A DNA stretch of 64,000 bases, taken from Euglena gracilis (Eukaryota). How positions within the stretch are numbered: position 1 is the first letter of the stretch; each line of letters opens with the position of its first letter. Location: NCBI GenBank assembly GCA_039621445.1, contig CP154954.1:49021847-49085846 (forward strand), read 5' to 3'. Below are positions 13,655 through 52,025 of the stretch, piece by piece. The notes below the pieces were generated by a model, which was given only the letters and a program-made list of their open reading frames with translations, did not search any database and was not told where the DNA came from. The translations under genes were made by a program, and so were the position numbers.

Positions 13655-16362
13655 TAAAAAGAAATCCGAGGAAGGATGCAGGCAGGAGCGCAATAAAAAA
13701 TGCCTTGGTTGGAAATTGGTCATCCGAGACCAGCCGCAGCCGCCCCAATTGCAACCACGCAAGGCCAAACCGTGGCTGCCAGTGAGGCCGGCCACGGTCG
13801 GCTTCAGCCAGACGGGAAAGCAGGAGGGCGAGCTCACCGCTTGCAATCGATGGGAAATTGGGGAATGCAGGGTGACGGCATCGAACGCGCCTGGGGAGTT
13901 TCCAAGCCGCTGCAGTGGTTGAAGAAGAGGAAGAAGAAGAAAAAGAAAGACGAGGCACCACACCCCCCAATAGGGGGGGGGGGACAAGGGGGGGGGGGGA
14001 GATGGTCAAGTAAGTGCAAGGGTAAACAATTTTCGATCCGGGGGGGATATGCAGAGACATGGGTGGCCATGCCGAATAGAAATCTGCAAAAGACTGGCTC
14101 CGTTGCCATCCATTGCAGCACAGAGGCCGCTGGAAAGAAGCAGTGTGGCGTACAAACCCGACCCCATCAAGGCGAGCAGCACATGAACACCCTGAAGCAG
14201 GATGGGTATCCTAATAAAAAAAAAATGAGTTAAAATTCACAACAATCCAACAAACTATGCCAACTATTGCCCCAGAAATGTGCTGTTGACAAGGGGGGGG
14301 GGGGGTGCCAACGGCACGATGGGTCTCAGACAAAAGACGTGTCAGACAAAATACGTTCAAAATGTGTCAAAAATGTGGCTTGTGATGAAAACACGCACAA
14401 AAATTGAATTGAATTTTGAAAAAAAAGGGTAAAAATATGAGAAGCACAGTCTGACCCCCCCATGGGGTCCTGGTTGTGTGGCGGGGTGGGTCGGTCATCG
14501 GTCCACATTTGTAAACCCCCCAAAATCCAAGACACCCTCTAAATAGACACACACCCTACATTCCAGGGACGAAGCGGCCAACAGGCACAAAACAAAAAAT
14601 GCAAAACGTTTACATTTTTTTTTAATAAAAAAATAAGGCAAAACGAGGCCACCCAAAAGATTGTCCCCCCCCACAAATGAAAACACCCCTAAAATTTTTT
14701 AAAACTGGGCTTTGGTTGCACCCTCAGGCGTTGACGTTTTTTTTTTTTTTTTAACAGTTTTTTTTAAAAAACAAAACATGTTTAAAAAAACGCAAAAAAA
14801 CATGTTTCTTTTTAAAAAAACAAAATTGAATTGAAAAAAAAAAAATTTGAATGGGGTAAAAGCAAAACCCCTTCTCTTCCGAGTCGCCGACATAAAAATA
14901 AAATTCAGGGAAGCGGGGGACACAAAATCTTAAACTGTTCCGGGCCACATTCCCATTCCGCCCCCATCACCCCCAAAAGTTCCATCCATCGGCTTTTTTC
15001 TTACCTGTCCTCCATCCACCCTTTTTGAGCAAAATTGTGAATGCCCTATCTCCTTGATGTTTCAGGGTCCGAGGGCGTCACAAACACCACATTTTCGGTG
15101 GGCCAAATAGGAATCACCGAAAACGAATTTTGGGGGGGGGAAAATCATTTTTTTGGCTCCAAAATTAAGGAATCCCCCAAACCCTAAAATTAGTATTTTG
15201 CAAATTAAGGACCATCGCCAGTCTAAATTTTTGCAAAATTGTGCCTCAAAATTAGGATTTTACCTGATAATATTTTGTCAAATTAGGCATCACCGGCAAA
15301 ATATTTTTCAAAAAACCATTGCAAAAAAATTTTCCGACAAAACCCTCCATGACGTTTTTTGAAAAAAAAAATCAATATTAATAAAAACATAAAAAAACAT
15401 ATTTTTAAAAAAACATGTTTTTTTTGTTTCAAAAAAAAGCCGTCAACCTTGTCTGCCCTATCTTTAAAAATCTTGTCGAGGATACAAATTTTTGCTAGTA
15501 AAGCCGATTTCCTATCAGAAATCGGGAAAAAACCCTGAGAGAAATTGCCCAAATTGCAAATTTTGAAAAAAAAGGCATATTGAAGTAAATTTGAAACAAA
15601 AATGCAAAAAAGCACCAGGTTTCCTTGTGAAAACGTTCAAAAAATGACTGGAACTCATTTCGCGCCTTTTATTTTCAGGTTCGTGAGGGAAAATTGGAGG
15701 AAAGGGAAAAAAAAAATTGTGGGAAAAAATTGCAAAATAATTACAGAAAAAAAATGTGGTCAAATCCCCCCTGCTTCTGTGCTTTGTGGCATGTTGACAG
15801 GGAATGTTTACCGTTGTCAAAACCTTCATCCCGAAATGTGATAAATATGCTGTGGCATTACGAAAGTCGTGACATTCAAGTATTGTGTGATTTGCCACCA
15901 ATATGACATAACTCCAAAAATACTCTCGGCTTCGGAAATAAAAACAACAAACCCAAAATACTCTCGCTTCGGAAAAAAAACGCTCTTGCAATGGCAGGTG
16001 TTCCTCTTTTGAAACAGAAAGGCTTTTACCAAGCTCGACCATTTTCTCATTCATGTTCGAAAAGATTAAATGATGAAATACCCAACCAAACCATATATAG
16101 AACCCCCACAAATTTTTAACCAGGCCGCCTTCATGGACAAAACTTAGCAAAGAAATCAACTCCATTCCCTTGAGTAACTGCAGCCAAAACAAGGTGTGAA
16201 GGAGGTGAACTTCTGGTTCCGGATTTGTAATATTTAAAAAAAGGTGGCTGCATTGATATTCTTCACTCTCGCTTCGCTCCACAACAGTCAACTGCCGCGG
16301 GGGGTCGAGGGGTATACAAGTCAGGAGTAGTGCGTGCCGGGGAACGCTGCTCAGCAAGGGGA

Positions 16363-16411
16363 GCTGTTTAGCGCGCGCAGCATGTCCAGCAGGCAGATGG
16401 GGAGGTCGGGC
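16363..16411 (-). CDS. Paralogue C, 3' part of the LLDMLRALN exon
   Basis: PDLPICLLDMLRALNS; homologous to 32850-32980, 46476-46610 and 63185-63226. Confidence 0.7.
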
Positions 16412-16664
16412 GCGGCCAGGGATGTACAGGAAAGACTGGTGGGGGGGGGGTTGGGGTTGACTGTCAGCCACCAAAGGAAAAAGGAATCATTTTTTAAGAC
16501 GCCTTAAAAAAAACCTTAAAATCCCTCAAAATTGCCTTAATCGTTGCTTTTGACCCCAAAAAAACGGCGCCGCCAGAAAAACGGGAAATCGTGGTGGGAT
16601 GGGGTTGGACCCCCCCCCAACCCACCACCCGTGGGGGTTCGGGGATTCCCGGACAGCCCGGACT
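16412..16664 (-). other. Putative non-conventional intron formed by a hAT-type MITE (253 nt), private to paralogue C
   Basis: GC|AGT CCGGGCTGTCCGGGAAT ... TTTCCTGTACATCCCTG GCCGC|G. TIR at +4 and -6; flanks GCCGCAGT / GCCGCGCC. Removal gives SAAPDLPICLLDM, the same length as SAELEDPHPLLDM in the uninterrupted paralogue. Confidence 0.8.
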
Positions 16665-16770
16665 GCGGCGGAGGGGGAGCGGCTGGTGGGGGATGGCAAG
16701 GCGCACGCCCGAAGGGTGTGGCGGGCTTGGGGGCAGCAGTGCCACCGGCGCCCCGGGAGGGGGTTCGCCC
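16665..16770 (-). CDS. Paralogue C, 5' part of the LLDMLRALN exon
   Basis: RRWHCCPQARHTLRACALPSPTSRSPSA aligns with RGRCRQARHALRGCALPSPADPFPSV; upstream boundary approximate. Confidence 0.7.
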
Positions 16771-19524
16771 ATCGTCGGGAGCCGAACGACACCCCCCGCG
16801 CCACTGGCAGTGTGGCGGATGGGGAGGACGCGGATGCGAATTCCGGGGAAGAGTCGAAATACCGAGGGCACAACAAACCAGGCAGAGCACAGACAAGACC
16901 AGACTTTCATTGAGCACCGCAGCGAACTATTCCGCGATGCAAAAGAAATTCTTGCCGCGGTGCACGTGGCGCACAGAAAGAAATCTTCCGCGGCGCAAGC
17001 AAACACAAAAAGTTTGGTGCCGCGGCGCAGAAAATTTTTTTCCGCGGCGCACTAAAATGAAAGTCAGGATTCTGGGGGCAATGTGATGCCCCTGATTCTG
17101 ATTCTCAATGTGCTCCCTCTTCAGGGTAAAGCCAGGTGGGGGGTGCTGTGGGGGGGGGGGAGCGGGAGACACCCACCTCGAACCCTGGCCCCTTCCAGAA
17201 TGATTTCTTCCAAGCCAGAATTGCAAACTAACAACAAACAGAATTACAACAAAAGGAGCGGGGCAATGGCATGTGTGGGGCGTTTTTCAACGACACAGAT
17301 TTTTGGGGGGCGAGATGACAGACAGGGCTGTGCGGAGAAGGGCCTGATGGGGGGGGGGGGTCGGGACCCCCCTCCAACCAGGATGGAGGATGGGGGGGGG
17401 GTTCGACCCCCAACCCACCATAAGGTTGTGGGTATTCCCATGCAGCCCTGGATGTCAGGGGGGGGATTGTGGGCGCCACGATGGGACCAGAATTAGTCGC
17501 CAAGCATTCAGGAGTTGGAGGCAAAAAAAAAAAAATGGGGAAAAAATTGGAGACGGCAAAAATTGGCTGTCCGAGCCAAAAGAGCAAGAAACATATTGGC
17601 AGGGTGTTCAGGCAAAAAAACAATTGGAAAAAATAGGAAAGGCAAACCAAAACAATGGCTGACCTCGCCCCGTGGTAGGGGTCCCAGGCTGGAGCTGGGC
17701 CCGGGGTCGAACCCGGGCACCAAAAAAATTGGAAATTTCAGAAAATATCAACAATATACAAAAAATCGATTTTTTGTTTTGACCCCAAATTTGTCTGGCC
17801 AGCACTTTTCTGACCCATTTTCGCCATTTTTGGCCCATTTTTGCACCCCGAAAGCAAACAAACAATCCGTTCCGTCCAGCTGCCCGAAGGGCAGCTGGAA
17901 AAAAGCAGAACTTGTTGATGGCTGCTGGTTGGCGTACCCCCCCCCCCCTGGGTGGGGGGGTCAAATCTTCTTTAGAAACTCCATGACCTCTGAAGATCAG
18001 ATAGCAACAGAAAGGCAGAGACCCTAAGACCTGAGCTGCTGAATGGCAGGATAACACATTTTTGTGCACACCAACCATGGGTGCCCAAACGGTGGCCCTG
18101 CTGGGCTGGGCTGGAGCTGGAGGTCGGCCCCGCGCCTGCAGAGCGGGAGGGGACCGGTTCAGCGCTCCTCGGGGGCGGGGCGGGGGGACGCCGGGGCCGG
18201 TGGGCCCAACCAGGGGACTCCTCCCCCTCCTGGGAAGTGGTGGTCGCCACAGCCCCATTCAGTATGCACAGTCCACGTGACAACTTCCCAGGTGGACAGC
18301 GTCAACCATATTGGGCGGGCAGGGTAGGAAATGAGTGGGGAGAGGGGGGGGGGGGTTGGGACCAGGCCCTGGTCGGCCCCTGGTTGGCAAAACAGTCGGA
18401 CATGGGTGGGGGGGGTCAGCAAATAAAAAAGAGGCACACACCCCGACCATGCAATACATTTTAAGCAGCACTTGTTGCCCACTGTTGGCCGTATTTTGCA
18501 TACTGTTCCTCACACTTGGCTATCTTTGGCCACTCTTATGGCGGCGATCTGCGCTGGTTTTTGCCCAATTTTGTGGCTGTGTGTTAGGCATTTTTCCCAC
18601 TTTTCGGCTGCTGTGAGCTTCTTTTGGTTGCTTTTAACCACCCTTGGTTAATTTTGCCACTTTGGCCACTTTCGGCTTTCTCGCCCATTTTTTTTTGGCC
18701 ACTGTTGCCTGCGTCTACTTCTTTTTGGCAACTTTTGGTCAATAGTGACTGCTTCTGGCCTCGTTTGGGCACTTTTGGCTGATTTGAGCCATCGGAAGCA
18801 ACTTTTGGCCACTTTGGAGCATTTTTTGCCCACTTAACGCGAATTGAGGCTTTTTGCTTCTGCTGTGCTTCTGCTCTGCTTTTTTTTTTTTTGCACTTTT
18901 GGTCCTCTTGGCCTCTTCACTTGCATCTTCCTTGAGTTGGTGGGAATGGGCAAAAAAATGGGCAAAGTGGGGCCAAAAGTGGATATAGAACGTGTAGGGG
19001 AGATGGGCAACAGTGGCAAAAATGCCCAAAAAAAAGACTGCAGGCCAGGAAGAAGAAACTTGTCCACCATTACCATGGAAATGATCGGCAAAAACAAATG
19101 GTAACATCGGCCCGAGTTGGCCCTAGTCGGCCCTCATCAGATCCCTCACAGTATGGGAGTCCTGAAAATCATGGTCACCCCTGGTCGAACCTGGTGGTCG
19201 GTTGGGAGGTGCTAGGTGTGCCCCCCCCCACCCCCATGAACAGTGGCTGTACAAAAAAAGGCCTGGTGATGGGGGGGGGGGGGGTCACCCCCACCCACCA
19301 TCACACCCAAATAAGGAAAATTTTGACCTAAAAATCGGCGCTCCCGGAAACAGGGGAATGCTAATGCGACATGTAGTTGCGAGGGGTTGGAGGGGGTTCG
19401 GACCCCCCCCTGCCACCAGAATGGGGTGGGGGGGTGGTTTTCGTCGGGGGTGGGGGTGGGGGGGTGGGGTGGTAGACCCCCACACACCACCCATGAAGAG
19501 GGGGGTCGGACCCCCCCCGGAAAT

Positions 19525-19652
19525 ATATTATTATATTTACTATATTATATTATTATATATATATATATATATATTATTAGATATATATATATTCTATATA
19601 CCACATACATATATAGATACCAATATATGTACATAATATATGATATATATAT
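19525..19652. repeat. AT-rich (TA)n/(TAT)n low-complexity tract
   Basis: Direct inspection. Confidence 0.9.
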
Positions 19653-21396
19653 GTTGTTGGCCCGTGTTTTTTTAAAAATAGTACGCAAAAACGCGATTTT
19701 CGGGCCTTGTCAAAGGCCCAAAAAATTTTTCACCGTACACCAAAAACTTCATCTCTGTACTTGGTTTCCGGGGAGTCCCCAGACCCCCTGGTCTGAAGGG
19801 GGGACCCCCCGTACAAAACCAGTGCTCACTGAATACCCTGCATGGGGTGACAAGCACTTATTTGGTTTTAAATCAAGGATGTTGGGGTACCACCGGGGAA
19901 AGGAAAAAAAAAAAAACAACCTTATCTTGGAGCAAAGTAAGTCGGAGAGGGATTTATTTGAGGGGGGGGGGGGTCCACATCGATAAGGGGGGTGGGTTGT
20001 AAACGAGGGGTTTGCTTGGGTGATTTACAACCTGAATAAACTGACTGAAATTGGCTGAGATTGGAATGGTTTTCCACCGGAAAACAACCCCTCCTTGGAG
20101 CAAGGCAAGCAAAATGAAAAAAAGATGTCCTGAGTGTGCAGCACTTTAGCAAGCAAACAGTTTCCAGTCGAAAAATGGCCTTATTTTTGCAAAAAAAAAT
20201 GTGTCAACTTTTAGAGAGAAAATGATTTCTGGATCCTTGGACATTTGCCCAGCCACCCAAAAAGTGTGTTTTGCGGCCTTTTATTTCTGGGCTCCGTTTG
20301 ACGCCCTTGGACAGACTAAGGCTGGCCCTTTGGCCCAAGGGTGGTTCTTACAGGGCAATACAATTTAAGAAAATCCCCGTCCCGTACACACCGCCTGGGG
20401 GTGATCAAAGAAAGCCCAAATCCAGCGGGACTTTGAGAAAGAGTCTTCAAAAATGGTAAAAATGGTTTAAAAAAATGGCGTTTCTTGTGGTTTTACCCAT
20501 GTTTTAGGTTAAAGAAATCCAATGTTTGTGGGCTCAGTGATCAGACTGTCCCATCGTTTCACCAGCGGACCCCTGGTGGGGAAGGGGGGGGGATCCGGCG
20601 TGAGAAGTCCCCTGGGCCCCACAGGGTTGGGGGCGGTGCGGGCGTACAGAGGGGTGACGTGGGCCGGGCAGGGCAAGGGGTTGACGGAAGAGGAGGGGGA
20701 GGGGGGGAGGGGAGCGCTAGACAGGCTCCCCAGGAAACAATGTCACATTTTGGGGGTCCCGGTGCAGGGTTGCTGTCCTGTGCGGTCAACGCCTGATTGT
20801 GGCACCGGCTCGGCCGCCCGCAGGGAGGGAGGCGGATCGGGAGCGCTCACCGCACCGTGCCCCTTCTGCGCGGCGGCGGACACGGGGATGAGGTGCGGGG
20901 CCAGTGGGGGGGCGGGGGACGGGAGCGCCCCACTGCAACGATGCATCCCTCGCATCTCCGCCATTGTTGCATGCGGTTCTCACTTTTACTCGCAGCACCC
21001 ACACAAAACACGATTGAAAACTGTTGAAGATCAGCGCAAAATGACAACGATCGGGGCCGGGGATTTGCGTATCCTCCGAATAATAATAAGCATGTCTCCG
21101 GGTCGCGATGAGGGTGGCAGGGCACCGTTTCGTAATCCGGCATCGGCTTCCTCCCGCAATCTTCCTCCCCCAGTCCAGGGCAGCGGGGCGGCCATGGAAG
21201 GGGGGATCCCCAACATTGGCAACGCTGGCTGGGCAATGACGTAGAGGGCAGGGGCCGCCAGCCACCGCACGAGTTGGCCAACGGGAGAAGACCGGTTTGC
21301 CTCGGGGGTGTTGTCCGTGGGGAGAGGCACGTTCCTCGCACGTCCCAGCCCCCAGGCTTTGGTTCAAACCACGTGGAGGAGTGTGCTCCCCATTTG

Positions 21397-22618
21397 CAAG
21401 CACCTATGACAGATTCCAAATTTTAGCCCGCGGTCGGCTGCGGTCGGCCGCGGTCGGCTGCGGTCGGATGCGGTCGGCTGCGGTCGGCCGCGGTCGGCTG
21501 TGGTCGGCTGCGGTCGGATGCGGTCGGCAGCGGTCGGCAAAGTAGTTGGCTGTAGGTGGGGGGCAGGCCAACAAAAAATGAGCATATATCACAATCACAC
21601 AATCCACTGTTGCCAACTTTTGGCCACTTTTTGATGCTTCTGGAGTGCTTTTGGCCACTGTTGCCGACTTTTGGTCGATTTTTGCTGCCTTTGCCCATTA
21701 TTTCCTGCCTTTTGCTTTGTTATGGTCACTTTTGTTGCTTTTGCCCACTTTTTTGCTGTGTTTTGGCTGCTTTTGGACAGCTTTTGCTTTACCTTGACCT
21801 CTTTTGACCACTTTTGGCCTCTTTAACCCACTTTTGACCACTTTTCTCTGCTTTTGGCCATTTTTACCTACTTCTGGCCACTTTCAGGCCACTTTAAACG
21901 TCGTTTTGTTGCCTTTGACATCAAGAGCAGTCAAACGTCACCTAAAAATGGCCTAAAAGTGGCAAAACATGGTTAAAATGGCCAAAAGTTCCAAAAGTAG
22001 GCAAAAATAACAAAAAAATGCCCAAAAATGGCCCAAAATGACCCTGCTTTTGGCCGATTTGGGTCACTTCAGCAGCTTTTGTTCACTTTTGGCAACAAAC
22101 TGGCACAAAATGCTCAAAATGGTCAAATTGGACCAAAAAGAGACAAAAAAAATGGGCAAAAATAACAAAAGAAATGGTCGAAAATGGCTTTAAATGGTTA
22201 AAAATGGCCCTAAATGGCCCAAAATGGCCCAAGAGCAGGACAAAATGGCCCAAAATTAACAGAAGTGGGCAAAAAGTGCCAAAAATGGTCAAAATAGGTC
22301 AAAATGGGTGAATTATGGTGGCAAAGGGGCCAAAAGGGGACAAAAGCGACCAAAAATGGCCAAAAGTGGCCAAAAGTAGCAACATGAGCCAGATGAGCCA
22401 GAAAAATCTCAACATCTGGGATAAAAATGAGCCCAATTCCTCATTCTCACTGAAAAATTGACATCAATTAGAAAAAAGTTGCGCGGTCGGCTGCGGTCGG
22501 CTGCGGTCGGCTGCGGTCGGCACCCCACCTATGACAGTCCTGAAACCCGTGGTCGGCCGCGGTCGGCTGCGGTCGGCTGCGGTCGGCTGCGGTCGGCTGC
22601 GGTCGGCATAGGTGCCTG
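21397..22618. mobile_element. hAT-type non-autonomous element, family A, copy 1
   Basis: TIR CA(A/G)GCACCTATG; perfect 8-bp TSD CCCATTTG; subterminal (GGTCGGCTGC)n arrays at both ends; closely similar copy at 44775-45959. Confidence 0.95.
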
Positions 22619-22941
22619 CCCATTTGGTCAAAGATGGAATGGGGGGGGGGGGTCACTCTCCCATCCTAAAATGAGCATAATCAAAACGGTTGACAATTTG
22701 CGAAGCCGAAAAAAAACCCTCAAAATCAACAAAAATGAATTTTGGAGAACTAGTTGGGAAAAAACGTCAAACAAAAAGACCGTCACAGCGCTGGAGGAAA
22801 ACTTCAATTCTTTTTTGGAATATCTGACGCATATTCATGGGATCCCTCTCTGGCTGCTATTTATTAAGGCTGCTATCAAATATATCACTCCCCACCTGAA
22901 TAGCAAACGAGAATGAGTGGTGTTCTTTTCATTGGGAGCCT

Positions 22942-23032
22942 CTGGCCGGGGTGCAGCTTGCTGCACTTCCCGCCGAACTTGCACTGCCCCGTCATGGCCC
23001 ACACCTCACACACCTGCCGACCGGCCTGGGCC
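22942..23032 (-). CDS. Paralogue C, CCCH zinc finger 2 exon
   Basis: AQAGRQVCEVWAMTGQCKFGGKCSKLHPGQ = C-x8-C-x5-C-x3-H; near-identical at 36474 and 51873. Confidence 0.9.
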
Positions 23033-24841
23033 TGCACCACACCATGGCTTCCTGTCCTGCCAGGGGTTACTTAACTTTCAACACACGACTCAGTTACTTC
23101 GACACTCCATCCCTCCTGGAGGGGGGGTTGGTGCCGCTACATAAGACCCAGAATTGATGCAGCATGACTGTTTTGTTCAGTAACTCAACGCCCTCATTGC
23201 CAGCTAAAAGCCACAATAACGCCCACTCCAGGGAGACCTAGAGGGGGCTCAGTGCAAATGTGAGAAAAACAACAAAACAAAACTAGTCAGTCAGTAAACC
23301 CCCCCCAAAAAATAAGACCCCCCCCCAAAATAAGACCCCCCCTGGGCCGATCGAGCAAAAATCCAAAAATAAGACCCCTCCCATAAATAAGACCCCCCTT
23401 GACGGCGCAAAGCGCCGGGGACGGTGAAAATCTTCCCTGAAAAATTACCAAAAACCCCAATTTCATACACAAAAATGATGAAATTTCAGAAAATTTCAGA
23501 TTTTTGAAGTGGAAAAAACATGGTAAATGTCAAATTACACCATTTTACACATGGCGCGAAGCGCCGAAGGAAAAATTTTAGCACTCTCGGGAACCTGAAA
23601 AATGGTGTTTTTTCGGGCCCGGGTCGGTCAAGAAAAAATCCAAAAATAAGACCCCCCCAAAAATAAGACCCCCCCTGGAGGCTTCCGGCAACGGACCCAA
23701 AAATAAGACCCGGGTCTTATTTTGGGGGGGGGGGTTTAGGGCGGGGGTACCTCGAAATATGCGATGCAAAAACGCAAAAAATGCAAATATAAGAAGACGT
23801 AAATCTCTTAAAATTTACAGTTTCTCCAAGACCCGGGTTGTGTTTTCTGTTGGAAAAAGCTTTACTCTCACCCCCCCCCCCCAAGCGCAATGAACACTAA
23901 AATGACAATCTGGACAGTCTTCGGAGAACACAGGGCAAAGGGGTTGGCTGACAGGCTTTCTTAAGGACCCCGGTCCACTGCTAAGCCATTTTGTTAGACA
24001 CTGGAAAAAATGGACCGGGTATTCCCCCTCCCCCCCCCCCAGGGTTGTATGGGAATCTCTGGGGGGGGGGGGGGGATCCCCCCTCCTACCTCCAGTTTTC
24101 GGTCGCCGAAAATTTCGGCCGCTTTTTGGGTAAAAAGATCGATTTTTTTGAAATTTCTCAAAAAATGGTGGGGAATCAAAAGAATGGGGGGGACACTGGA
24201 CTGGTAATGGCTAATTGTGAATAAAAAGCACATGGTGTGTGGTAATAATTTATTTTCCTTTGAAGGCTTGGTTAGACTGCTTCATTCACACGTGGACATG
24301 TGGACTTTGAAGACTGACTTGCACCAAGTTGCAATTGTAGGGGCACAATGTTCAGGCAAGAGCTCTGTCTTAGAGAGCCGAGTTGGGAGATATTTCCTGC
24401 CCTGAGTTTCGACATTCCAAAATTCCAAACGCCCCCTGTTCATTGCACAAGGGCGTTCATTGGATGTGGGGGGGGGTCAGGTAACTGAGTTATTTTAATT
24501 TCATAAAGCAAAACACTTTGAATAATCATTCGCAATCTTTTGAAGCCAAAAATGCATGATGAAAAGGGTGCCTTTCGTGTTTTTTAAAAAAAAACCAAAA
24601 AATGGGGAAAAAGACAGAGAAAAGCAGTGCAAACTTATCCTCGGGGTTTGTTGCGGAGTTGCATGGAATTATACTTCATTTCAAACAGCAACTCATTCAG
24701 ATCAACAAATCAACAAAAGCTTTCAAAGCATTGTTGAACCATTACAAAAACGCAGATTGCACAACTGGCATACCTCCCACCTGCAGTCAGCCAGCCATGT
24801 GCCCCCACCGCTTTGTGGGGACCCCAAGACGTGGTGTGGTC
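23033..24841 (-). other. Putative non-conventional intron formed by a TIR element (1809 nt), private to paralogue C
   Basis: GTGCA|GAC CACACCACGTCTT ... AAGCCATGGTGTG GTGCA|GGC. TIR 11/13; TSD GTGCAGAC / GTGCAGGC. Removal restores GTG CAG GCC CAG as in paralogues A and B. Confidence 0.85.
24262..24405 (+). pseudogene. Dynamin-family GTPase N-terminal/P-loop fragment
   Basis: TDLHQVAIVGAQCSGKSSVLESRVGRYFLP* versus dynamin LPQIAVVGxQSSGKSSVLExxVGRDFLPRG; TGA where Arg is expected; no further exons seen. Confidence 0.85.
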
Positions 24842-24900
24842 TGCACCGCGCCGGACAGCAGCTGGTAGTCCGAGAGGTCCGGGTGGGGGAACCGGCACCG
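24842..24900 (-). CDS. Paralogue C, 59-nt exon (end of zinc finger 1 plus linker)
   Basis: RCRFPHPDLSDYQLLSGAVQ; near-identical in paralogues A and B. Confidence 0.88.
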
Positions 24901-25470
24901 GGGGGACTGCCCCCGCCTCTGCCCAACCTCACACCCCCCCCCCCCAGGCACTTGGCCCGGGCCATGACTGAAAATCCAACTTTGCGGAGCCAAGTTCGCA
25001 TTTTAAGATTTTTTTGCAGGCCTGGGCATGATTGAAGGGAAGGCCAGGGGCCAACCTTTCGGCGCTAAACTTGCTGATGTTGAGAATTCTGGCGGCCATA
25101 TGGGCAAAGGCCGAACAGGGGCAGGCAAATGCCACTGGCACATTTACACAATTTCCCCCCCTTAATGTTCAAGGGTCAAATGTGGCATGTTTTCCTTCAA
25201 CATTTGACACATTTTTTCAAGTCCCCCTGCGCTTGCCCCCCCCCTGACTTTCATGCTATTTGTCCCTCTAACAGTTGGCCAGCAAGGGAGAACTCATTGG
25301 ACGAATGGGTTGTTGGTAAAAGCTCTATTCAAAACGGGGTTTTCAACGAAGATGGCAAACAACTGAAAGAACGCAAATGCACTGGGTTGATGAGCAAAAT
25401 GACCTGGGGCCAGAGAGAGAGAGAGGCAGATAGACAGAGAGAGAGTGAGAGAGAGAGGGAGAGAGGGAGA

Positions 25471-25504
<34 letters not shown>

Positions 25505-25677
25505 CAACTTCCCCTCCCCCTTTAATGGACACTGAAAGGACAACACGAGACATCATTGGGCGTGTGTTGTATGGCAGTTGTGTTGCTGAAAGGTGGCAAA
25601 CTAGACGGTCCTGACACCCGGTTCTTTAGACATGGGGGGGGGGTCTTAGGAAAGCCTGGCCAGGCGGGGGCAGGCTG
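24901..25677 (-). other. Shared non-GT-AG intron in zinc finger 1, paralogue C (777 nt)
   Basis: Ends pair CTGCCCCCGCCT / AGGCGGGGGCAG. Removal gives CLDYLKGRCVRRRCRFPH. Exact junction inferred. Confidence 0.75.
25411..25504. repeat. (GA)n microsatellite
   Basis: Direct inspection. Confidence 0.95.
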
Positions 25678-25850
25678 GCGACGCACGCAGCGGCCCTTCA
25701 GGTAGTCGAGGCACACGCGGGGGGGGCTGGCTTCGGCCTGGGCTGGCTTGGCCCGGTTGGCCGCGCGGGGCTGGGGGCCGCTGCCCCGCAGCACGCCGTC
25801 AGCGGGGGCCATCGTGGGGGAGGAGGACGAGTCGGACTGCATTTCTGGGG
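25678..25850 (-). CDS. Paralogue C, exon with first half of CCCH zinc finger 1
   Basis: ...AKPAQAEASPPRVCLDYLKGRCVRR; upstream boundary approximate. Confidence 0.82.
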
Positions 25851-26136
25851 AGGGGCCGGGGCAACCACCGCCCTGTACAGAGGTGGTCAACTTGCCCCCC
25901 CCCCCGTTCAGCGGGCGGAGCCGTGTGTGCAGTGTCTGTACCCCCCCTTGTCCAAGAGGTGCCAATGCTCAGGGAATGTGTCGTTGACACAGGCGGGTGG
26001 ACAACGGCATGGTGTGTTCAAAATGCCGTCACGGAGGACGTGTCAACAACACGGTGTGTTCGGGCAGGGGGGGGGGGCATCTCGCATCACCCGATGCTGG
26101 TGGCAATGAGAACTTAGGCGGCGCATCTCGCACTTA

Positions 26137-26308
26137 CCCCCCCCCCCTTGTCGTACGACCGGGTTCCTGCAACCTGTGACTGGGGGGGGGGGTGGTCATA
26201 AATGAGGGGGCGGTTGTAGGTAAGGTGGTGTTAAATTTTTCGCAACCTGCAACCTGTGACCGGGGGGTGGTCATAAATGAGGGGTGGTCGTACGACTAGG
26301 GGGGGGGG
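26137..26308. mobile_element. TA-flanked MITE, family C (GTCGTACGACC / CCTGCAACCTGTGAC)
   Basis: TA|C(n)TTGTCGTACGACC...GGTCGTACGACTAG(n)|TA; relatives at ~28101-28520, ~47861-48115 and ~61371-61488. Confidence 0.85.
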
Positions 26309-26534
26309 TAAGCGTTTTTGGTCGATGTTCGCATTTTCGCAAACCAACCGTAAACCACTTTGAGCACCAGAGTTACAAGGTGTGAGAGAGAGAGAGGCAG
26401 CAGGATTCAACAAAATACCTCCCCCCCCCAGGCACTTGGCCCGGGCCAGGATTAAGGGAAAGGAAAGGGGGCCAACCTTAGGGGGGCCAAGTTTGTATGT
26501 AAGAAGGAGGGGGCCCAAGTGCCCGGGGGGGAGT

Positions 26535-27042
26535 CAGGGTTGTATGGGAATCTCTGGGGGGGGACCCCCTTCCAAAACTAGGGGGGGGGGACCCCCTCCT
26601 ACCTCCATTTTTCGGTCGCCGAAAAATCCGGCCATTTTTGGGGGGGGGTCCAAAAAGCAATTTTTCTGAAATTTCCTGAAAATGATGGGGAATCAGAGGA
26701 AATGTCAAAAGATCAAATTGAAGCCCTTAAAATGCCCCATCTAACAGAGTTTTGATTACCACTCAACTCCCCACCAGTCCCGAGTTACGGCCATTTTTTT
26801 TGTCCATTTTGCCAAAATTTCATGTTATGCCTCAAAAAAGTACAAAAATACACACCCGGCGCGAAGCGCCGGAATTTTTTTTTTTGCTCCCGCAGAGGAG
26901 GGGAAGGGGGGTGGGCGGGGACCCCCCCTTCCGAAACTAGGGGGGGGTGGGGGGACCCCCCCCCTACCACCTTACCCCCCTACGGGGGGACCCCCCCCCC
27001 TACCACCTACCTCATGTCTGCGGAGCTTCCCATACAACCCTG
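26535..27042. mobile_element. hAT-type MITE
   Basis: TIR CAGGGTTGTATGGGAA; perfect 8-bp TSD GGGGGAGT; central GGCGCGAAGCGCC; related left end at 24040. Confidence 0.92.
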
Positions 27043-30000
27043 GGGGGAGTACGAGCGGTTTTTTGTTTTGGGGATCCTGGGAATTATTTTTTTGCTGATT
27101 GTTTGGAGTCGGAATGACACGAAAAACCCCGGACCTATCCCCCCAAAATGAAAAAAAGACCGACAAAAACACCAAAACCCCGGAACCGCCACCCCCCATT
27201 CCCTGTGTGAATACTGCCACCGCCAGATGGTGCTCTGGAGGTGGGGTGGCAGGTCCAGCCCTCTTGCTTTCTGAAGTTTTGCGGCACGTTGTGGAGGTTT
27301 TTGAAGTTGGTTTCAAAAAGGAGCGGAAATGCACATGCCACATAAAGAATGGAGTGTTCGAGAATTCTGCCACTGGGGGTTGATGAGGGGATGCAAAACA
27401 CAGGAAGACTGCTACCGATTACTAGTTGAGTTCAGTGGCAAGTTGTACATCAATGCCCCACTGAGGTTTAAGGCATGCCCCACTGATGTTTAAGGCTCCG
27501 TGGCACCCACACAAAATGACCGAAAAATCGCGAAAAGTGCTAAAATAGCACTTTTTCGGCGCCGAAAAATATATCCCACCCCCCTCCGGGGGACCCCCCC
27601 CAGGGGGGGGCTCGGCCGGACCCACCCACCCTACCCCCCCCCTCCCCCCCGGGGGTCCGCGACTAAAAAAACCCCCTGGTAACAACACTAATATTACCTC
27701 CCTTGTACTCATGTGGTATTGGACCCCCTCTGTTGAATGCTGCTGGTATGTTTGGGCGGTTGGTGTGCGCAAATGCGCACATCAACCATTAAAATGGTTG
27801 CTTTTCACAATTGTGCCAAGCCAATCAGTCACTTTACCCCCCCCCCCCGGGGGTCGGCCACTCAGGAAAACCAGTTCCTTTTTGACCTTTCAAGGCCATT
27901 TTTGGCCAAAATTTTCTCCAGCGCCTTCGGCGCCGGTTGGCCACTCAGCCACTTTTGGGTGATTTCGGGCCTACCCCACCCCCCCCCGGGGGGGGGGTCA
28001 CGGCCAAAAAACCAGTCAGTCACTCCGAAAAAACCAGTCAGTCACCCCCGGGGGGGGGGGACAGGTGTTAAGCAATGGTCTGGTTTCTAAATTAAAATTA
28101 CCCCCCCCCCCTGTCGTACGACCGGGTACCTGCAACCTGCGACCGGGGGGGGGGGTCATTAGACCCGCCCTAACCTGCAACCTGCAACCGGGGGGTGGTC
28201 GTTGTTCACAGCATTGACCGATACCAAAGGGGACCCGAACTACCGTCATGGGTGCTGCACACAGCAACAGCAAAGCAAGCAGCATGAGAATATGGGAGGG
28301 AAGTTGCCCTGACACCGGCAGCGGGGACATAGAAAATGGCTGGAAAAAGCGGCAAACATGGATGCATCTTCATGCAACCTCAAAAAAACCAGCCTCTCTT
28401 TTTGGTCCTGACCTGCAACCTGCGACCGGGGGGGGGGGGGCGTTAGACCCCCTAACCTGCAATCTGCAACCAGGGGGGGGGGGGTCGCTATAGTGGGGTG
28501 GTCGTACGACAAGGGGGGGAGGGCATGTAAAGGTATCTTTACTCCCAAATGACCCTTTTCAAATATGATGATGATTTTTTTTACCAACAATGATGTTGCC
28601 AATGATGCCACTTTTACCAAAATTTTGAAAGAAAAAATCTAATCACGGCAACACATGCTCGAACTGGCAAAGCACGTTGTCTGCCAGTATGCCACGCATG
28701 TTGGCACAGTCGTTTTGCCCAGTTGCATGAGCTTATGATTCATTATGCAACTGAAAAGGCAGAATTTATTTGAAAAAGTGATGCAACTTCAGGATACCTG
28801 GAGATTCTGGTAAAAGGGCAATCCCCATGCGATCGCCCTGAAATAAATCCTTGCAAAGATTGGGAGGTCAAAATACGCAAAAAAAATGCAAAAATGCACA
28901 GTTTCCCAGAAGTTTCATTCAAAAAAAGCAAATTTTCAAGATTCTGGTTCATGGATAATTGCAAATTATGTCTTGGCTCCAGCCGCAAAAAAAATGCAGG
29001 GCAGGCAAAAGAAGGGCCGAGGAAAGCATGCGCTGCGGTCCCAATTGTTGTCACCATCGTGGGGTGGACGTAGCTGGCACACCCTGCTGCCAGCCGCAGA
29101 CAGGCCGAATTCCATCCTTGGGGCGAGTCCATATGCCCGGTCAAAAATTATAGCCCGGTGAAAAGTGCCTGGGCCAAATGCCAAATGGCACGGGCATTCC
29201 TTGCCATTCAGCACTTCCCCGAGCGGAATTCGGACCTTGCTGATTCTCCCGCCTGCCTGGGGGGAGGTCCGCCTTAGAATTCAGTCTGGCCGCGTAGGGG
29301 CTCACACATGCCTCTGTGCCTCTTGCAGGCCGGCGGCCAGCAAGGTCCAGCAAAGGTGGGTTGAGGGCATGAACGGGGTCAACGCCCACAGGGCTCCAGT
29401 GGGGGGAACGAAACCGCGGCATCCCTGCCGGAGCCACAGCCGCGGCCGTAGCCCAGCAGGGATGCTCAGCGCCACTCGGCAACGCCAAGGGTGCGGGAAA
29501 GGGAAAGGGTCGCTCAGGGCTCGGAGGGGGGGGGTGGGCAGCCACACAGCTGCGGAAGGGAAGGCGCAACCAGAGAGGGCAAACCACTCCATTGCCAGCC
29601 CACCACTGGGTATGCGGCCGTGTGAATCGCGGGCTCGGTCGGAAGTTTGTGCCTTGGAGTGCCTGCCCAGGCAGGCACCCCCCCCCCTCCGGGGTGGGGT
29701 CGGCACCACCTGAAAAAAAAAAACAGCCTGGTGAGCACTGCGTGCACTGTGTGCATGAAGTGGAACATTCATTTTTGGCAGGAATGCTCTGAATCTGCGA
29801 ATTGAAACGCACCAAAACAAGCATGAATCCAGCTGGGTTGCAAATATTAACCAAAAAAATTACTTTGGGTCATTTTGACCCCCATTTCAATTTTCGGTTC
29901 AATCCTCAGAGGGAGGCCTGGCTGGGAGCTGCTGGTTGAAGGTCAAAAAGGGGTGCTGGTTGGCAGGGCTGGCTGGATGGAAGCAATCTTCCAAGATAGA

Positions 30001-30717
30001 AGCAGCCACCAGGAAAGAAAGTGGGCTATGGCGCACACAGGCACGGCAGGTTGGCGTCAAAAGACTCGTTTGCTGGTGTGCGCTGCAAGACGAACCTCCT
30101 CTCTGATGGTTGGATGAGCGGAGGGACGAGCGGCAAGAGGGGGCCGAGGCGGATTTGGCCGGCCTCGGAGGAAAGAACGGCCGAATGCGGCCTCCGGTGC
30201 AGCGGCATTGTTCCTTCGGTTGGAATTCATGGGACTGTCGACTAGGATTTCCACAAGCCAAATTTGGATTATGCAGTCCAGCCCCCCCCCCCGGGGGGGG
30301 TACTGCGAACCCTTGAGGAGAAGCCTGTAGCCAGATAACGCAGTGAATCTTCAACCTGAGTCCTCATCGGGGGGGTCTGTTGGCTGGGCTAGCTTGTGGG
30401 GAAAAAAATTCCAGTGATTTGTAAGACCCCCAGAACTGGCCAAAAAAATGCCCATTTTTGGCCAGCTTTGGGATTTTTTTGGAACAAAACCAGCCAAAAA
30501 TGCACTAAAATCAGTTCCTCCTCGGAGCCAGCGCTGGAGGAATTCCAGTCGGGGCCCCCGGACCCCCAAAACTTTTAAGGCACTTTTTTTAAAAGGTGTT
30601 TTAAGGCGCCTTAAAAAATACCCCCTGCCAGCCTGGGCTTCAATGGGGGAACTGTCAAACAGATGTATGGGGACAAATTCCGGGAATGGATTCCAATAAA
30701 ACCCAATCCCCAAATGA

Positions 30718-30908
<191 letters not shown>

Positions 30909-32849
30909 CCCCACTGAGGGTCCGACTTCGTTAATGCACCCCCCAACAACACCCCCCAACAACACAAATGTCACAGAGGCCTGTGCAGTTCTTCCACCTC
31001 CCCCGCACTGAAATCCAAGGGACCTATTTCTTTGTTATGATTGCCAATGTCGGATTGGGACAAGATGTAAGGTGTCATTAGTAGAAAAACCATCCTGGAT
31101 ACGGGTAAACCCCCACCCCCAGGGCAGGAGTGAGTGGTGGTTTTGCGGGGGGGGGGGGTCAGACCCCTCCTTCGGAGCGAGGGCCCAGGGGGAGGGGGGG
31201 TCCGAGAACCCCTCTCATTCAATACCCTGCCCCCCGGGGTGCTAGTTTTTTTGCCCGAAGTCCCATCCAGGGGGGGGGATTAACAACTGAATTTTTGCCG
31301 AAAAACAGCCAAAAAACTTGAGGTTGGAAAAGGTTCAAAAATAGCAATACCACAGATTTGAGATGAAGAATCCTTGAACACCTCTTGTGCATTTGACCAA
31401 CGTGAATATCTCAATAAAGCGTGAAGTGTCCAAAACCGATGAAGCTGATTTCTTTATTTGTCCCACCAACCCTGCAAAACATCATCTCCAAACCTGACGT
31501 TGCGAACGTATCTGCATGCATATGCCTGTGATGCCCATACAAATCACAAACCGCAAACACCAGGTCATCCCAAACGCGGTTTTAGTGGCACGCACTTGAG
31601 CATTAATGTATAGCACTCCTCAGAAAATTTTTTTGCAGCCCTTTGATGTCAACGTTGCAGAGAAAAGCCAACACAGATCAGTCTAAACAAATCCCCCCCC
31701 TCCTCTGTGACAACTCCGCCTCACTCTGTGTGGCGTGCAACTGCCAGCGTCGACGGAGTACCTCAGTTCTGACGCACCACTGCCCCATCCCTTTGTCCGC
31801 GTCCTCGTGCCCCCTCCCCTCCCCTGCAGTCGTCAGTCATCCAGCGGAGGTCATCCCTGTTGACGGTCCAGGCAAGCCACAATGCATGGGGGCCGGCCGG
31901 GATGAAGGGTGCGGCGTTGGAGCCACCGGCTTAGGCTACAGCGGAACCAACGCGCGCTGCCGGCCCAACGAACCGACAGCCTCCCCCAACCCCCAATGCA
32001 CCGGCCAGCGCTGCCCTGACCCTCCACATCAAACAGGAGCACAATAGCCCAGGCCAATGAATAAAACCAATGAACTCCTGGCGGTCACAAAGCGGTCGGG
32101 GGGGGGGGGTGGCTTTTGAGTCGGTTTCAGGAAAACTAATCTCAAGAACCAAAGGGATTTGACAAAAACTTTGCATTTTGAGGAGGACTTCCCCAAGACA
32201 GAAGGTTTTTGGGATTCTTTTCAAGAAAGGTCCTTTCTGAATTTTTTGGGCCAAGAAATGGGAATGACCAACTTCTCAAGTGGACTTGCCAACTTGTTAC
32301 GCAGGCCAAATGGTATGAGCAACTTCCCAACGGGAACGCGCAAGCACGCAGGTGAGGAATTTTCCTTTGTCGCTACTTGGGCTACACCACCTGAAAGAAG
32401 CTCTTGTGTCTGCATTTCTGTATTAATGGGGAAATCCATCAAGGCAGCCTTGGGACAAAAATGTGGAATGGGGAGGCAAACTGAGAAAGGAAACACCACA
32501 GGTTCGTGAGGCTTGCCTGAAGGGACCGGCACTCGAGCCATGATGCAGCTTGTTCTGGGTGGCAAGAACCATGCACGATGCACAAACACTGGTTGAAAGC
32601 AACAGGGTCGTCCCGTTCACGCTTATTTCAAATAGGAAAAAAATTTAAAAAAAATGTTCAAATTATTACAAAAAATATTGGTCAGAATACCTTAGCATGC
32701 CTTAAAAACCAACATGCAAAAAAAATCCTAAAAGAACTTTTTCCATCATGCCAGACAAATTGCTGGAAAAACCCCTTCTGCCATGTCGGTCCCTTGGACT
32801 TCTCATCTTCCTTCTGGACTTCTCATCAAACAGCGTGCATTTATGGGGC

Positions 32850-32980
32850 GACGTTCAGGGCCCGCAGCATGTCCAGCAGGGGGTGGGGGTCCTCCAGTTC
32901 AGCGGACGGGACGGGGTCAGTGGGAGAGGGCAGGGAACAGCCCCGGAGGGCGTGGCGGGCTTGGCGGCAGCGGCCTCGGT
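32850..32980 (-). CDS. Paralogue A, uninterrupted LLDMLRALNV exon (function unknown)
   Basis: RGRCRQARHALRGCSLPSPTDPVPSAELEDPHPLLDMLRALNV. Differences from 46476-46610 include five synonymous third-position changes in this frame. Confidence 0.8.
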
Positions 32981-33229
32981 CTCTCAGGCAGGAAAAACTT
33001 GTGGTTGAGACACATTGAGCACGTGCTGTTCCAATATCATTGGTCTGGTTCAAACATGGGATGTGGTGAACACCACAATACCTGTCTAAATGAAGTGTTC
33101 TCTGTTACAAAACAACTGGGGGCTTTCGCAATCCTTGACCAGCTGACAATCATATGGGACAATGCCCGCTCAGCCATGCTGTGAAATTATCGCCACAAAA
33201 CAGACACGGGGGGGGGGGGAGGGGGTCGG

Positions 33230-33440
33230 CGACCACTTGGGCTGGCTTGGCGAGGCTGAGGAGGCAACTGGGCTGGAGAGGTCCGCCTCCAGCGCCGCCC
33301 ACGCTGGCTGGGCGGGGGTGTCGCTCAATGGGGGCTGCGAGGCGGTGGGCTGGTCGGCCTGTGGGGCGCCGGCAGAGCCCCGGGGGTTGAATGGGGCGGC
33401 AGTGGGACGCAGGCGGAACGGGATGACATGGGCCGGGGCG
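33230..33440 (-). CDS. Paralogue A, probable Pro/Ala-rich exon
   Basis: PAHVIPF...AALEADLSSPVA is homologous to PAHTFPF...AALEADLSSPAA at ~46810-47015; boundaries approximate. Confidence 0.6.
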
Positions 33441-33856
33441 AGGGGTTGGGGGAGGGGGGGGTGGGGGTGTGCTGGAAACAGTTTGGGGGGAAACAAACAA
33501 ATCAGAAACCGCTCACATTAATTAACTACCGCTCGCCGGTGTCTAAGCACCGGAAAACGTGGGCATGAACCGGGACATGGTGTGGGCAGAAAAGGACCTT
33601 CAATGAAAAAAAAAAAAATTGGCACGCTGAAAAAGAAAGAAATGCTCAGGAACCTCTGCTCAACTTGAGGGCATTGGGTGGCAAAAATCAACAACATCTC
33701 ACCAAAATGAGCTTCAGAAAAATTTGGAATATCAAAACCTGACCCAGCTGACCCACCCTCGGCTGGAACTGGGCCCAACTGGGCCTCTTTCACCCCCTCA
33801 CTTGTACTTGAAAAAAAAAATACGGGGAAAATGCAATTGACGCAGAGTGTGTGTAA

Positions 33857-33883
33857 GAGGGGTTTTTTAAAGACCGGGGGGTC

Positions 33884-33918
<35 letters not shown>

Positions 33919-34096
33919 GGGGGGGGGGGGGGTCCCAGGGGACCCACTCAAAAATTGCGAAAAATTGCAAAAATAGCACCTTTTCAAAAATTTTCAGCGC
34001 CGAAAAGTATATCCCACTCCCCCGGGGAGAGAGGGGGGGGCTCGGCCAGACCCACCCACCCACCCCCCCGGGGGTCCACAACTAAAAAAACCCCTG
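33857..34096. mobile_element. hAT-type MITE with very long C/G homopolymer
   Basis: TIR (C/G)AGGGGTTTTTT; perfect 8-bp TSD GTGTGTAA; related right end at ~27520-27679. Confidence 0.88.
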
Positions 34097-36473: not shown

Positions 36474-36626
36474 CCCCTGGCCGGGGTGCAGCTTGCTGCA
36501 CTTCCCGCCGAACTTGCACTGCCCCGTCATGGCCCACACCTCACACACCTGCCGGCCGGCCTGGGCCTGCACCGCCCCGGACAGCTGCCGGTAGTCCGAG
36601 AGGTCCGGGTGGGGGAACCGGCACCG
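36474..36626 (-). CDS. Paralogue A, exon with end of zinc finger 1 and all of zinc finger 2 (uninterrupted)
   Basis: RCRFPHPDLSDYRQLSGAVQAQAGRQVCEVWAMTGQCKFGGKCSKLHPGQG. Confidence 0.92.
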
Positions 36627-37267
36627 GGGAAACTGCCCCCGCCTCCGCCCACGAAGAGAAAGGCAAATGCCAGCATCCCTCACCCTGCCGGCCGTCTTTA
36701 AGCAGCTGCACAGAGGATACGGGTCAGGTGTCACTGCAAGTCTTAACATAAAATGCATTGCCTTTCGGAGTTTCGTGTCTGACAACAGGTTCTCTTTGAC
36801 ATTTCTCCCTGAAAAGAAGCACAAGAACCAAAATGCAAAGTCTGCGGGTTCTTATGGATTTTCCGGCTGCTGAAGGAATGCTGGGAGACCTGGCTGCAGC
36901 GTCGACGTGGGAAGAGAATGGGTCAGAGATTTGTTTAATGACTCTCCCCCCAAAGATTTTTTAGGACCCAGGGGGGGTCTTGTTGGGTGGAATGGGTTCA
37001 TCAAGGGAAAGTACTGAGCAGAAAAATCCCAGAAAGAGTTTCAAAACAAACCCAAATATAATGATGATGCTTGAAAACCAGGGGGTTGGGAGTGCAGGGA
37101 AGGGGATGCAGGGCTGCAAAAAGGCTGCTGGCCGGCTGGACCGCAACACTTTCCCTCCAGCTTGAGCGACGTTTGGGCCTTGGGCCGTAATTACGTTGCA
37201 AAGCGCCGTAAATCATGGCGACAGGAGCAGGGGGTCGGAACAAATACAGCGAGGCGGGGGCCGGTTG
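36627..37267 (-). other. Shared non-GT-AG intron in zinc finger 1, paralogue A (641 nt)
   Basis: Ends pair GCCCCCGCCTC / GAGGCGGGGGC; same position as in paralogues B and C. Confidence 0.75.
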
Positions 37268-37545
37268 CCGCCGCACGCAGCGGCCCTTCAGGTAGTCGAG
37301 GCACACCCGCGGCTTGTCCGGCTTGTCCTCCCGGGGTTGCTGTGGCGGCTTTGCCTCGAAGTATTCACTTGGCCCGTGTGCACACCTCGGGGGGAAACAA
37401 CTGGACTGGGGTGGCCGGCACACCACCGCTAAGTGAAGCCTGGGTCGTGCCCTTCGCCCCGACTAGCTGCATAGGAGTGCCCTCAGCCCTGACGCCTTCG
37501 AGGCCGGCCACGGAGGGGAGGGAGCAGGCCGGGATGCGCATCCTT
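37268..37545 (-). CDS. Paralogue A, exon(s) with first half of zinc finger 1
   Basis: RMRIPA...EAKPPQQPREDKPDKPRVCLDYLKGRCVRR. A frame change near 37370-37420 may be a small intron, a homopolymer error or decay. Confidence 0.75.
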
Positions 37546-46475: not shown

Positions 46476-46610
46476 CACGTTCAGGGCCCGCAGCATGTCC
46501 AGCAGGGGTTGGGGGTCCTCCAGTTCGACGGAGGGGAAGGGGTCTGCGGGGGACGGCAGGGCGCAGCCCCGGAGGGCGTGGCGGGCTTGGCGGCAGCGGC
46601 CCCGGTGACC
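46476..46610 (-). CDS. Paralogue B, uninterrupted LLDMLRALNV exon
   Basis: GHRGRCRQARHALRGCALPSPADPFPSVELEDPQPLLDMLRALNV. Confidence 0.8.
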
Positions 46611-51872: not shown

Positions 51873-52025
51873 CCCCTGGCCGGGGTGCAGCTTGCTGCAC
51901 TTCCCGCCGAACTTGCACTGCCCCGTCATGGCCCACACCTCACACACCTGCCGGCCGGCCTGGGCCTGCACCGCCCCGGACAGCTGCCGGTAGTCCGAGA
52001 GGTCCGGGTGGGGGAACCGGCACCG
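51873..52025 (-). CDS. Paralogue B, exon with end of zinc finger 1 and all of zinc finger 2 (uninterrupted)
   Basis: Same translation as 36474-36626. Confidence 0.92.

Follow-up and report, generated by a model that had tools for sequence, protein, structure and literature searches.

In the 64-kb stretch of DNA analysed here (the window), small tandem-CCCH zinc-finger genes, at least four in number, form a tandem array on the minus strand at a spacing of approximately 15 kb. One of them, gene C, contains between its two zinc fingers an insert that is absent from its neighbours A and B. This insert has transposon-like ends and is probably a euglenid nonconventional intron; its structure, its possible removal from RNA and its origin are considered below. 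The members of the array are:

Gene C, 16300-25900, minus strand
Gene A, 32800-37550, minus strand
Gene B, 46460-54910, minus strand
Gene D, 63185-63830, minus strand, partial

Genes A and B are sister copies with 98.8% identity in the zinc-finger exon. A protein search with this A/B exon gave 17 matches, all of them from eukprot transcript sets (EG_transcript_* or GGOE01*), the best one, EG_transcript_11334, being 100% identical. We take EG in these names to stand for Euglena gracilis. Compared with EG_transcript_11334 exon by exon, gene B is 100% identical in two exons and 69-95% identical in the others. The window is nuclear DNA of E. gracilis or a very close relative.

The exon common to A, B and C encodes the end of CCCH zinc finger 1 (CRFPH), a linker (...SGAVQ AQAGRQ...) and the second finger (CEVWAMTGQCKFGGKCSKLH). 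When the flanks of the insert in C (22700-23032 and 24842-25300) were compared with the window by BLAST, each was found in two further copies, and in these copies the flanks abut. According to these searches and to alignments, both within the window, the extra DNA in C amounts to exactly 1809 bp and lies in the linker, directly 3' of a CAG codon. A reading made earlier from the sequence only had proposed an intron gain specific to paralogue C, and the specificity is borne out at both the A and the B site. The flanking exon of C was also correctly described as intact and nearly identical to its relatives: it differs from A at 4 of 144 nt (two synonymous and two nonsynonymous differences, counted by eye) and its reading frame is open. 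The features concerned are the following, a slash marking a border here and below:

23033..24841, minus strand, insert in C, putative nonconventional intron, 5' gac-CAC-acc... ...ggt-GTG-gtgca 3', followed by exon G; absent from A and B
24842..24899, minus strand, exon piece 2a of C, end of zinc finger 1 (CRFPH) and linker up to ...SGAVQ; from translation and the RNA joint 24899->25677
22948..23032, minus strand, exon piece 2b of C, AQAGRQ and zinc finger 2 (CEVWAMTGQCKFGGKCSKLH); from translation, with reads stopping at 22948 with loose ends
36567..36568, minus strand, empty site in paralogue A, GGTGCAG/GCC uninterrupted; from BLAST and alignment
51966..51967, minus strand, empty site in paralogue B, uninterrupted; from BLAST and alignment

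No Pfam family was found in any of the four insert open reading frames (ORFs) tested, and an Rfam scan of the whole window at the gathering threshold gave no matches.

The two ends of the insert carry both direct and inverted repeats:

24839..24846, minus strand, 5' copy of an 8-bp direct repeat, GTGCAGAC, with 5 exonic and 3 intronic bases
23031..23038, minus strand, 3' copy of the repeat, GTGCAGGC, with 5 intronic and 3 exonic bases; agrees with the one copy that A and B have at their empty sites
24819..24840, minus strand, 5' arm of the terminal inverted repeat (TIR), ACCACACCACGTCTT..., from a repeat search, 22 nt at 77%
23036..23057, minus strand, 3' arm of the TIR, ...AAGCCATGGTGTGGT, from the same search, 22 nt at 77%

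Read on the minus strand, the two edges are ...GCG GTGCAG/ACCACACCACGTCTT... and ...AAGCCATGGTGTGGTGCAG/GCCCAGG..., and GTGCAGAC and GTGCAGGC match at 7 of 8 positions. The same bases can also be read in an alternative register as a perfect 7-bp repeat, GGTGCAG, which gives eight equivalent cut positions, or in a further register as a 4-bp GCAG repeat accompanied by a longer (15-nt) inverted repeat. The outer 15 nt of the inverted repeat, ACCACACCA(C/T)G(T/G)CTT, match at 13 of 15 positions. Judged from the letters, the length of the target-site duplication (TSD) is thus ambiguous and may be taken as 4, 7 or 8 bp. Among random 1809-bp boundaries within the window, a direct repeat of at least 7 occurred in 232 of 200000 cases and a roughly symmetric terminal inverted run of at least 9 in 51 of 20000, while the chance frequency of an 8-mer match of at least 7/8 was 0.0012. 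Such frequencies argue that the structure of the insert ends is not accidental, and the near-perfect duplication and the TIR pointed out by the sequence-only reading can be regarded as real.

Euglenid nonconventional introns are described as having ends that pair with each other, typically through CAG at positions +4..+6 and CTG at -8..-6 (Milanowski et al., 2014, 2016). Knock-in mutagenesis has led to the code 5'-N3-CDG ... CH'G-N5-6 followed by a purine (R) as the first exon base, and 61.2% of the nonconventional introns of E. agilis are reported to fit it (Nomura et al., 2025). The insert in C can be laid out in the same register, gac-CAC-accacg ... catggt-GTG-gtgca and then exon G, that is, with paired triplets set off from the borders by spacers of 3 nt (5') and 5 nt (3'), and with a purine as the first exon base. 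At +4..+6 it has CAC and at -8..-6 GTG; these still pair at the standard register, just as had been noted from the sequence. They are part of a perfect 9-bp helix between +2..+10 and -12..-4. The terminal fold of the insert ends (10 nt + U7 + 10 nt) has an energy of -9.2 kcal/mol, and a value of -9.2 kcal/mol or lower was reached in 1.55% of 2000 random boundaries. RNA-supported introns folded likewise gave -2.6 to -11.8 kcal/mol in five of six cases and 0.0 in intron 1 of C. At the eight equivalent cut positions the borders would be GG..GT, GT..TG, TG..GG, GC..GT, CA..TG, AG..GC, GA..CA and AC..AG, none of which is GT/GC-AG. As far as the sequence goes, then, the geometry of the insert is of the nonconventional-intron type, with triplets that fall outside the code. 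Code-compliant alternatives near the edges do not help: none of 240 candidate pairings restores gene C, and the best of them, with a 7-bp helix, would retain 84 nt of the insert and remove most of zinc finger 2.

The other introns of the region offer a comparison, their RNA-supported joints having ends that are not GT-AG on either strand. The published code N3-CDG/CH'G-N5 is fitted on the minus strand by 5 of the 12 RNA-supported joints examined (11 listed in the read mapping, plus intron 3 of A, inferred from loose ends), and the other seven fail the strict test. The intron of A that follows zinc finger 2 complies with the code, reading ggc-CAG-ggggggccc ... gggccccc-CTG-ccccc:

35984-36482, minus strand, intron 3 of A, from loose ends, code-compliant

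An intron at 32515-32798 (minus strand), the borders of which cannot slide, lies outside the code. It has AAG/CTT at the same register, a 9-bp helix and the borders TC..GC, and is supported by 8+2 reads of the RNA run X21, four reads of the RNA run X24 and one contig of the set X16. A non-CDG triplet at nonconventional geometry is therefore spliced within the same window.

Read mapping covered 22650-41100 and made use of two raw-read RNA runs (X21 and X24), contig set X16, guessed to be RNA, and DNA contig set X1. The sequence-only reading had named two outcomes that would speak against it, namely lack of expression of C and splicing from an internal GT donor with the terminal GCAG, and the data speak rather against both. 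The joint 24899->25677, which corresponds to intron 1 of C, is supported by four X21 reads and one X16 contig, indicating that C is transcribed and spliced upstream of the insert. For this joint the mapping gives a 'side' value of 59, which equals the block 24841-24899 and is what exact excision of the insert would produce: the 58-nt exon piece 2a plus one ambiguous base makes 59, a GT-AG junction would give 54 and retention of the insert up to 75. A side value of 59 was also recorded at both joints around a 59-nt exon (32456-32514), which supports the reading of 'side' as block length. The depth of X21 was about 9-10x over exon pieces 2a and 2b versus 0.4-0.6 over two bins inside the insert, or some 20-fold less, the two bins being very high-copy repeats in DNA (X1 depth 370210 and 37033). 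A single X21 read at 24779, in the unique right end of the insert, indicates that the filled locus is transcribed. Exon 1 of C is its least conserved exon, with 89% identity to A and 86% to B, so reads that match C there at 98% or more should be C's own. In sum, removal of the insert from RNA is supported only indirectly.

These observations can be accommodated in the following scheme. A non-autonomous DNA-transposon-like element with TIRs would have entered the linker between the zinc fingers of C and duplicated the target GTGCAGGC, and this element would later have acquired, or already have carried, high-copy nested repeats. In the pre-mRNA the inverted ends would pair, +2..+10 with -12..-4, and through this pairing the 5' cut would fall 3 nt ahead of the helix triplet and the 3' cut 5 nt beyond it, which are the spacings of the euglenid nonconventional machinery. 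Cutting at these positions would remove the element together with 8 nt, that is, one copy of the target duplication, and ...SGAVQ/AQAGRQ... would be exactly restored. We infer that the machinery would accept CAC:GTG, where C:G replaces G:C at +6:-8, and that the C lineage gained the insert. By insertion and exact excision of this kind, the transposon-like insert in C would probably qualify as a euglenid nonconventional intron.

A more specific proposal goes beyond this and has to be seen as tentative, being in our view somewhat doubtful. It holds that splicing is exact despite CAC:GTG, with the machinery measuring distances of 3 nt and 5 nt from the paired triplet within the terminal helix and tolerating a flipped +6:-8 pair, and that splicing would exactly undo, at the RNA level, the insertion of elements from a transposon family whose ends read CA(G/C)... 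and whose TSDs measure 8 bp. In the insert the spacers of 3 and 5 nt add up to 8 nt, or one copy of the 8-bp duplication. When older introns were subjected to the same 8-mer comparison, the matches were 6/8, 5/8, 4/8, 4/8, 2/8 and 0/8 (the 5/8 of A intron 3 and one 4/8, of C intron 3, come from the same ancestral intron, which leaves five independent values), the random mean being approximately 2. Such remnants hint at the exact-reversal idea and are suggestive only.

Several points weigh against interpreting the insert as a spliced nonconventional intron of transposon origin, and some of them concern the code. While its two spacers (3 nt and 5 nt) and the G as purine comply, the insert departs from N3-CDG/CH'G-N5-6 and R in having C rather than G at +6 and G rather than C at -8. 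Single substitutions at any position of CAG/CTG are reported to abolish splicing in a knock-in assay, and among the second-position variants tested only CTG-CAG kept it, alongside natural CGG-CCG/CGG-CTG introns; the Results and Discussion of that study mention no variant in which +6 and -8 are exchanged so that they still pair (Nomura et al., 2025). Published border frequencies give a purine at the intron 5' end in 51/55 introns and at the exon 5' end in 55/55, and a pyrimidine at the upstream exon 3' end in 49/55 and at the intron 3' end in 49/55 (Milanowski et al., 2016). The insert follows two of these four preferences, with G at the intron 5' end and G at the exon 5' end, and has A at both positions where a pyrimidine is preferred. 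Other points concern the element itself. No second copy, from which the TSD length (4, 7 or 8) and the family might be read, was found in the 64-kb window; the 15-nt terminal motif occurs elsewhere in the window only as two matches with two mismatches, inside unrelated repeats and in neither case at the end of an element. The comparison of nonsynonymous and synonymous change that had been suggested for the exons of C is, on the other hand, in line with an otherwise intact gene. Between C and both A and B, over 243 nt, the proportion of synonymous differences (pS) is 0.19 and that of nonsynonymous differences (pN) 0.022-0.028, although pN is biased downwards by the selection of segments with conserved peptide motifs, and the values span the whole divergence of C from A/B and not the time since insertion. 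They indicate that C is not a long-dead copy, and tolerance of the insert is not thereby demonstrated.

The RNA data leave room for the view of C as a recently disabled copy, encoding zinc finger 1 only and then a stop, in which the transposon insertion stays unspliced, while the reads stem from a near-identical gene elsewhere in the genome that lacks the insert; such a gene would indeed mimic splicing. The joint 23032->24842 itself is not among the 15 joints listed (there are 136 further joints), so that the intron status claimed by the sequence-only reading has on its side the 59-nt block at the insert edge, the low RNA depth of the insert and the otherwise intact gene C, and lacks the junction among these 15. 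An expressed C-like paralogue outside the window is certain: 14 X21 and 3 X24 reads that stop at 22948 run on into an exon translated YVIPQPAQPA. C's own next exon, at 21243, reads YVIAQPALP instead, and the YVIPQPAQPA exon was found nowhere in the window, only the exon of A turning up. Some of the read depth over the exons, notably over the conserved zinc-finger-2 exon, may thus come from this close paralogue. Moreover, no transcript-derived protein with the residues of C (DYQLLSGAVQ) was seen among the 17 protein matches, of which 13 were inspected, the four uninspected ones (P0013-P0016) being 75-81% identical to the query; protein searches at shorter lengths gave no matches. CAC/GTG is off the published splicing code, as outlined above, and according to the ORF list, read-through from exon piece 2a meets a stop by 24787. 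Against this stand the reads that join exon 1 to exon piece 2a, which match C at 98% or more over its least conserved exon, as a paralogue with a different exon 3 probably would not. The rest of C has kept its frame and motifs, and the filled locus is transcribed, as the X21 read at 24779 indicates, yet its insert is some 20-fold under-covered relative to the exons. We therefore regard a disabled C as unlikely, and prefer to see the insert as a nonconventional intron.

If the insert is an intron, its absence from A and B could also mean that C did not gain it and that their common ancestor precisely lost an old intron. As A and B are sister copies (98.8%), one loss would be enough. The one change in eight intronic repeat bases fits an age near the C-A/B split (pS ~0.19), the nested repeats in the insert imply that time has elapsed, and intron content varies elsewhere in the family. 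Thus, C (~16393-16661) and D (~63230-63731) have in common an intron that interrupts the C-terminal exon between ...PSAA/PSAE and ...LLDMLRALN and is missing from A and B, which points to turnover of introns among these zinc-finger genes. A target-site duplication that abuts inverted termini is, however, the signature of an insertion, and in surveys gains of nonconventional introns are frequent (15 in tubulin genes), the reported losses being of conventional introns (Milanowski et al., 2014). Precise loss seems rather improbable to us. The comparison covers C, A and B, with the zinc-finger exons of D lying beyond the window and no outgroup; from this window alone gain in C and loss in the A/B ancestor would be inseparable, and of the gain claimed by the sequence-only reading it is the insertion signature that stands. 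A conventional GT-AG intron, for which the sole option has its 5' end at the GTGCAG of 24846 and its 3' end at the CAG that closes at 23033, is highly improbable. It would delete 6 nt (Val-Gln) in frame, and both GT and AG are indeed present in the duplicated GTGCAG, but the block beside the joint at 24899 is 59 nt and not 54. The last 30 nt contain about 30% pyrimidine (counted by hand) and the 5' end does not match GTGTG, whereas conventional E. gracilis introns are described as having a C-rich tract and the 5' consensus GTGTG. In addition, the SGAVQAQAGRQ segment that would be shortened is unchanged in 6 of the 13 family proteins inspected (P0001-P0005 and P0017) and carries 1-3 substitutions in the other seven, which makes it conserved, though not invariant. 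As to an assembly artefact, an interior made of very high-copy repeats (X1 depth to 370210) can mislead assemblers. A 743-nt X1 contig nevertheless spans the right junction (24155-24893) with four base differences, which argues against misassembly, even if X1 is possibly the sample behind the window assembly and the contig not necessarily independent. A misjoin would not create matched direct and inverted repeats at the edges either, and we give this explanation hardly any credence.

Apart from the insert, gene C comprises the following parts:

24900..25676, minus strand, intron 1 of C, splitting zinc finger 1, with CTG...CAG pairing; RNA joint
21244..22947, minus strand, intron 3 of C, predicted by homology to the A intron 35984-36482, ggc-CAG...CTG-ccctc, code-compliant
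25684-25719, minus strand, N-terminal ORF of C (..MAPADG...RVCLDYLKGRCV); translation
16688-16726, minus strand, C-terminal exon of C, in frame (ARHTLRACALPSP); translation
16366-16392, minus strand, last exon of C, ending LLDMLRALNSSPC-stop; translation

It is in exon 3, the C-terminal exon and the last exon that frame and motifs were seen to be kept. The intron that splits zinc finger 1 (C 24900-25676; A 36628-37271) has CTG...CAG and an 11-bp G/C helix; in C, where it is one of the seven introns that fail the strict test of the code, its spacers measure 3 and 7 nt. At the joint of the A intron 36628-37271 an X16 contig is longer by three letters, and the copy that is expressed is thus not identical to A in the window. 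From the zinc-finger-2 exon of A, 116 X21 reads leave at 36483 for an exon outside the window; together with the reads leaving at 22948 they point to further expressed family members elsewhere in the genome. In one X16 contig the C-terminal exon follows directly on the zinc-finger-2 exon (32962 -> 36483), 3520 nt being skipped; an alternative isoform or another paralogue could account for this.

Repeats occur both within the insert and scattered over the window. Those nested in the insert are:

23296..23736, nested repeat with 25-nt inverted arms and AAAATAAGACCC units; very high copy in DNA reads
23874..24476, second repeat-like segment with 22-nt inverted arms (82%); partial copies elsewhere in the window

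The X1 depth of 370210 was recorded in the bin 23266-23881. Elements that are bounded by poly-C/poly-G and contain AAAATAAGACCC units are located at 23296-23736, 27560-27660, 33885-34090 and other places. Their X1 DNA word depth, up to 370210 as against approximately 100-300 for single-copy parts, identifies them as very abundant genome repeats. A 1.1-kb segment with GCGGTCGGCT tandem arrays is found at 21488-22620 and at 44806-45961 with 91.5% identity, one of the copies lying within intron 3 of C.

The origin of euglenid nonconventional introns is described as unclear, and a MITE-like source (miniature inverted-repeat transposable element) has been proposed (Milanowski et al., 2014; Nomura et al., 2025). 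They are reviewed as being excised as circular RNA, after the conventional introns. Gene C offers a clean single-locus example of the MITE-like-origin proposal, in that a filled site stands beside two empty paralogous sites, with the target duplication intact and the inverted termini in splicing register. If the junction is confirmed, it would also be a natural test of whether +6:-8 must be G:C. The idea drawn earlier from this sequence, that recognition depends on pairing geometry and not on CAG, is not new. It was already published in 2016, when the same conclusion was reached from 55 introns (Milanowski et al., 2016), and was refined by mutagenesis in 2025, the results of which partly contradict it (Nomura et al., 2025).

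Comparable systems exist outside euglenids. In dinoflagellate introners (Symbiodinium/Polarella; Amoebophrya) the insertion of a transposon is reported to make an intron to which one TSD copy contributes, as proposed here, and those of Amoebophrya share with the insert direct and inverted repeats combined with non-canonical borders (Farhat et al.). The introners of Symbiodinium/Polarella supply or recruit G[TCA]...AG spliceosomal sites (Roy et al., preprint), which the insert lacks, and the host here is a euglenid: with the TSD read as GCAG the element ends ...GGT, and the intron would be GC..GT. A dinoflagellate introner as such was ruled out, the RNA-supported introns of the region not being G[TCA]..AG and the proteins matching a Euglena transcript set.

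There is also a likeness to MITEs and other non-autonomous TIR transposons, with which the insert shares TIRs of about 15-22 nt directly flanked by a target duplication, a paralogous empty site and the lack of Pfam domains in its four tested ORFs. It differs from a MITE in its length (1.8 kb), its nested repeats, the ambiguous TSD length and the single copy seen in the 64-kb window. With euglenid nonconventional introns it has in common the non-GT/AG borders at every equivalent cut, the pairing ends, the 3/5-nt spacing, the purine-first exon, a TSD-like border repeat and a length within the reported range of dozens to thousands of nucleotides. It differs from them in having CAC/GTG instead of CDG/CH'G, and A instead of a pyrimidine at the end of both the upstream exon and the intron. 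The insert represents no new kind of system. Its splicing is supported only indirectly, and its place would be among the euglenid nonconventional introns, as one of transposon-like origin with an off-code triplet pair.

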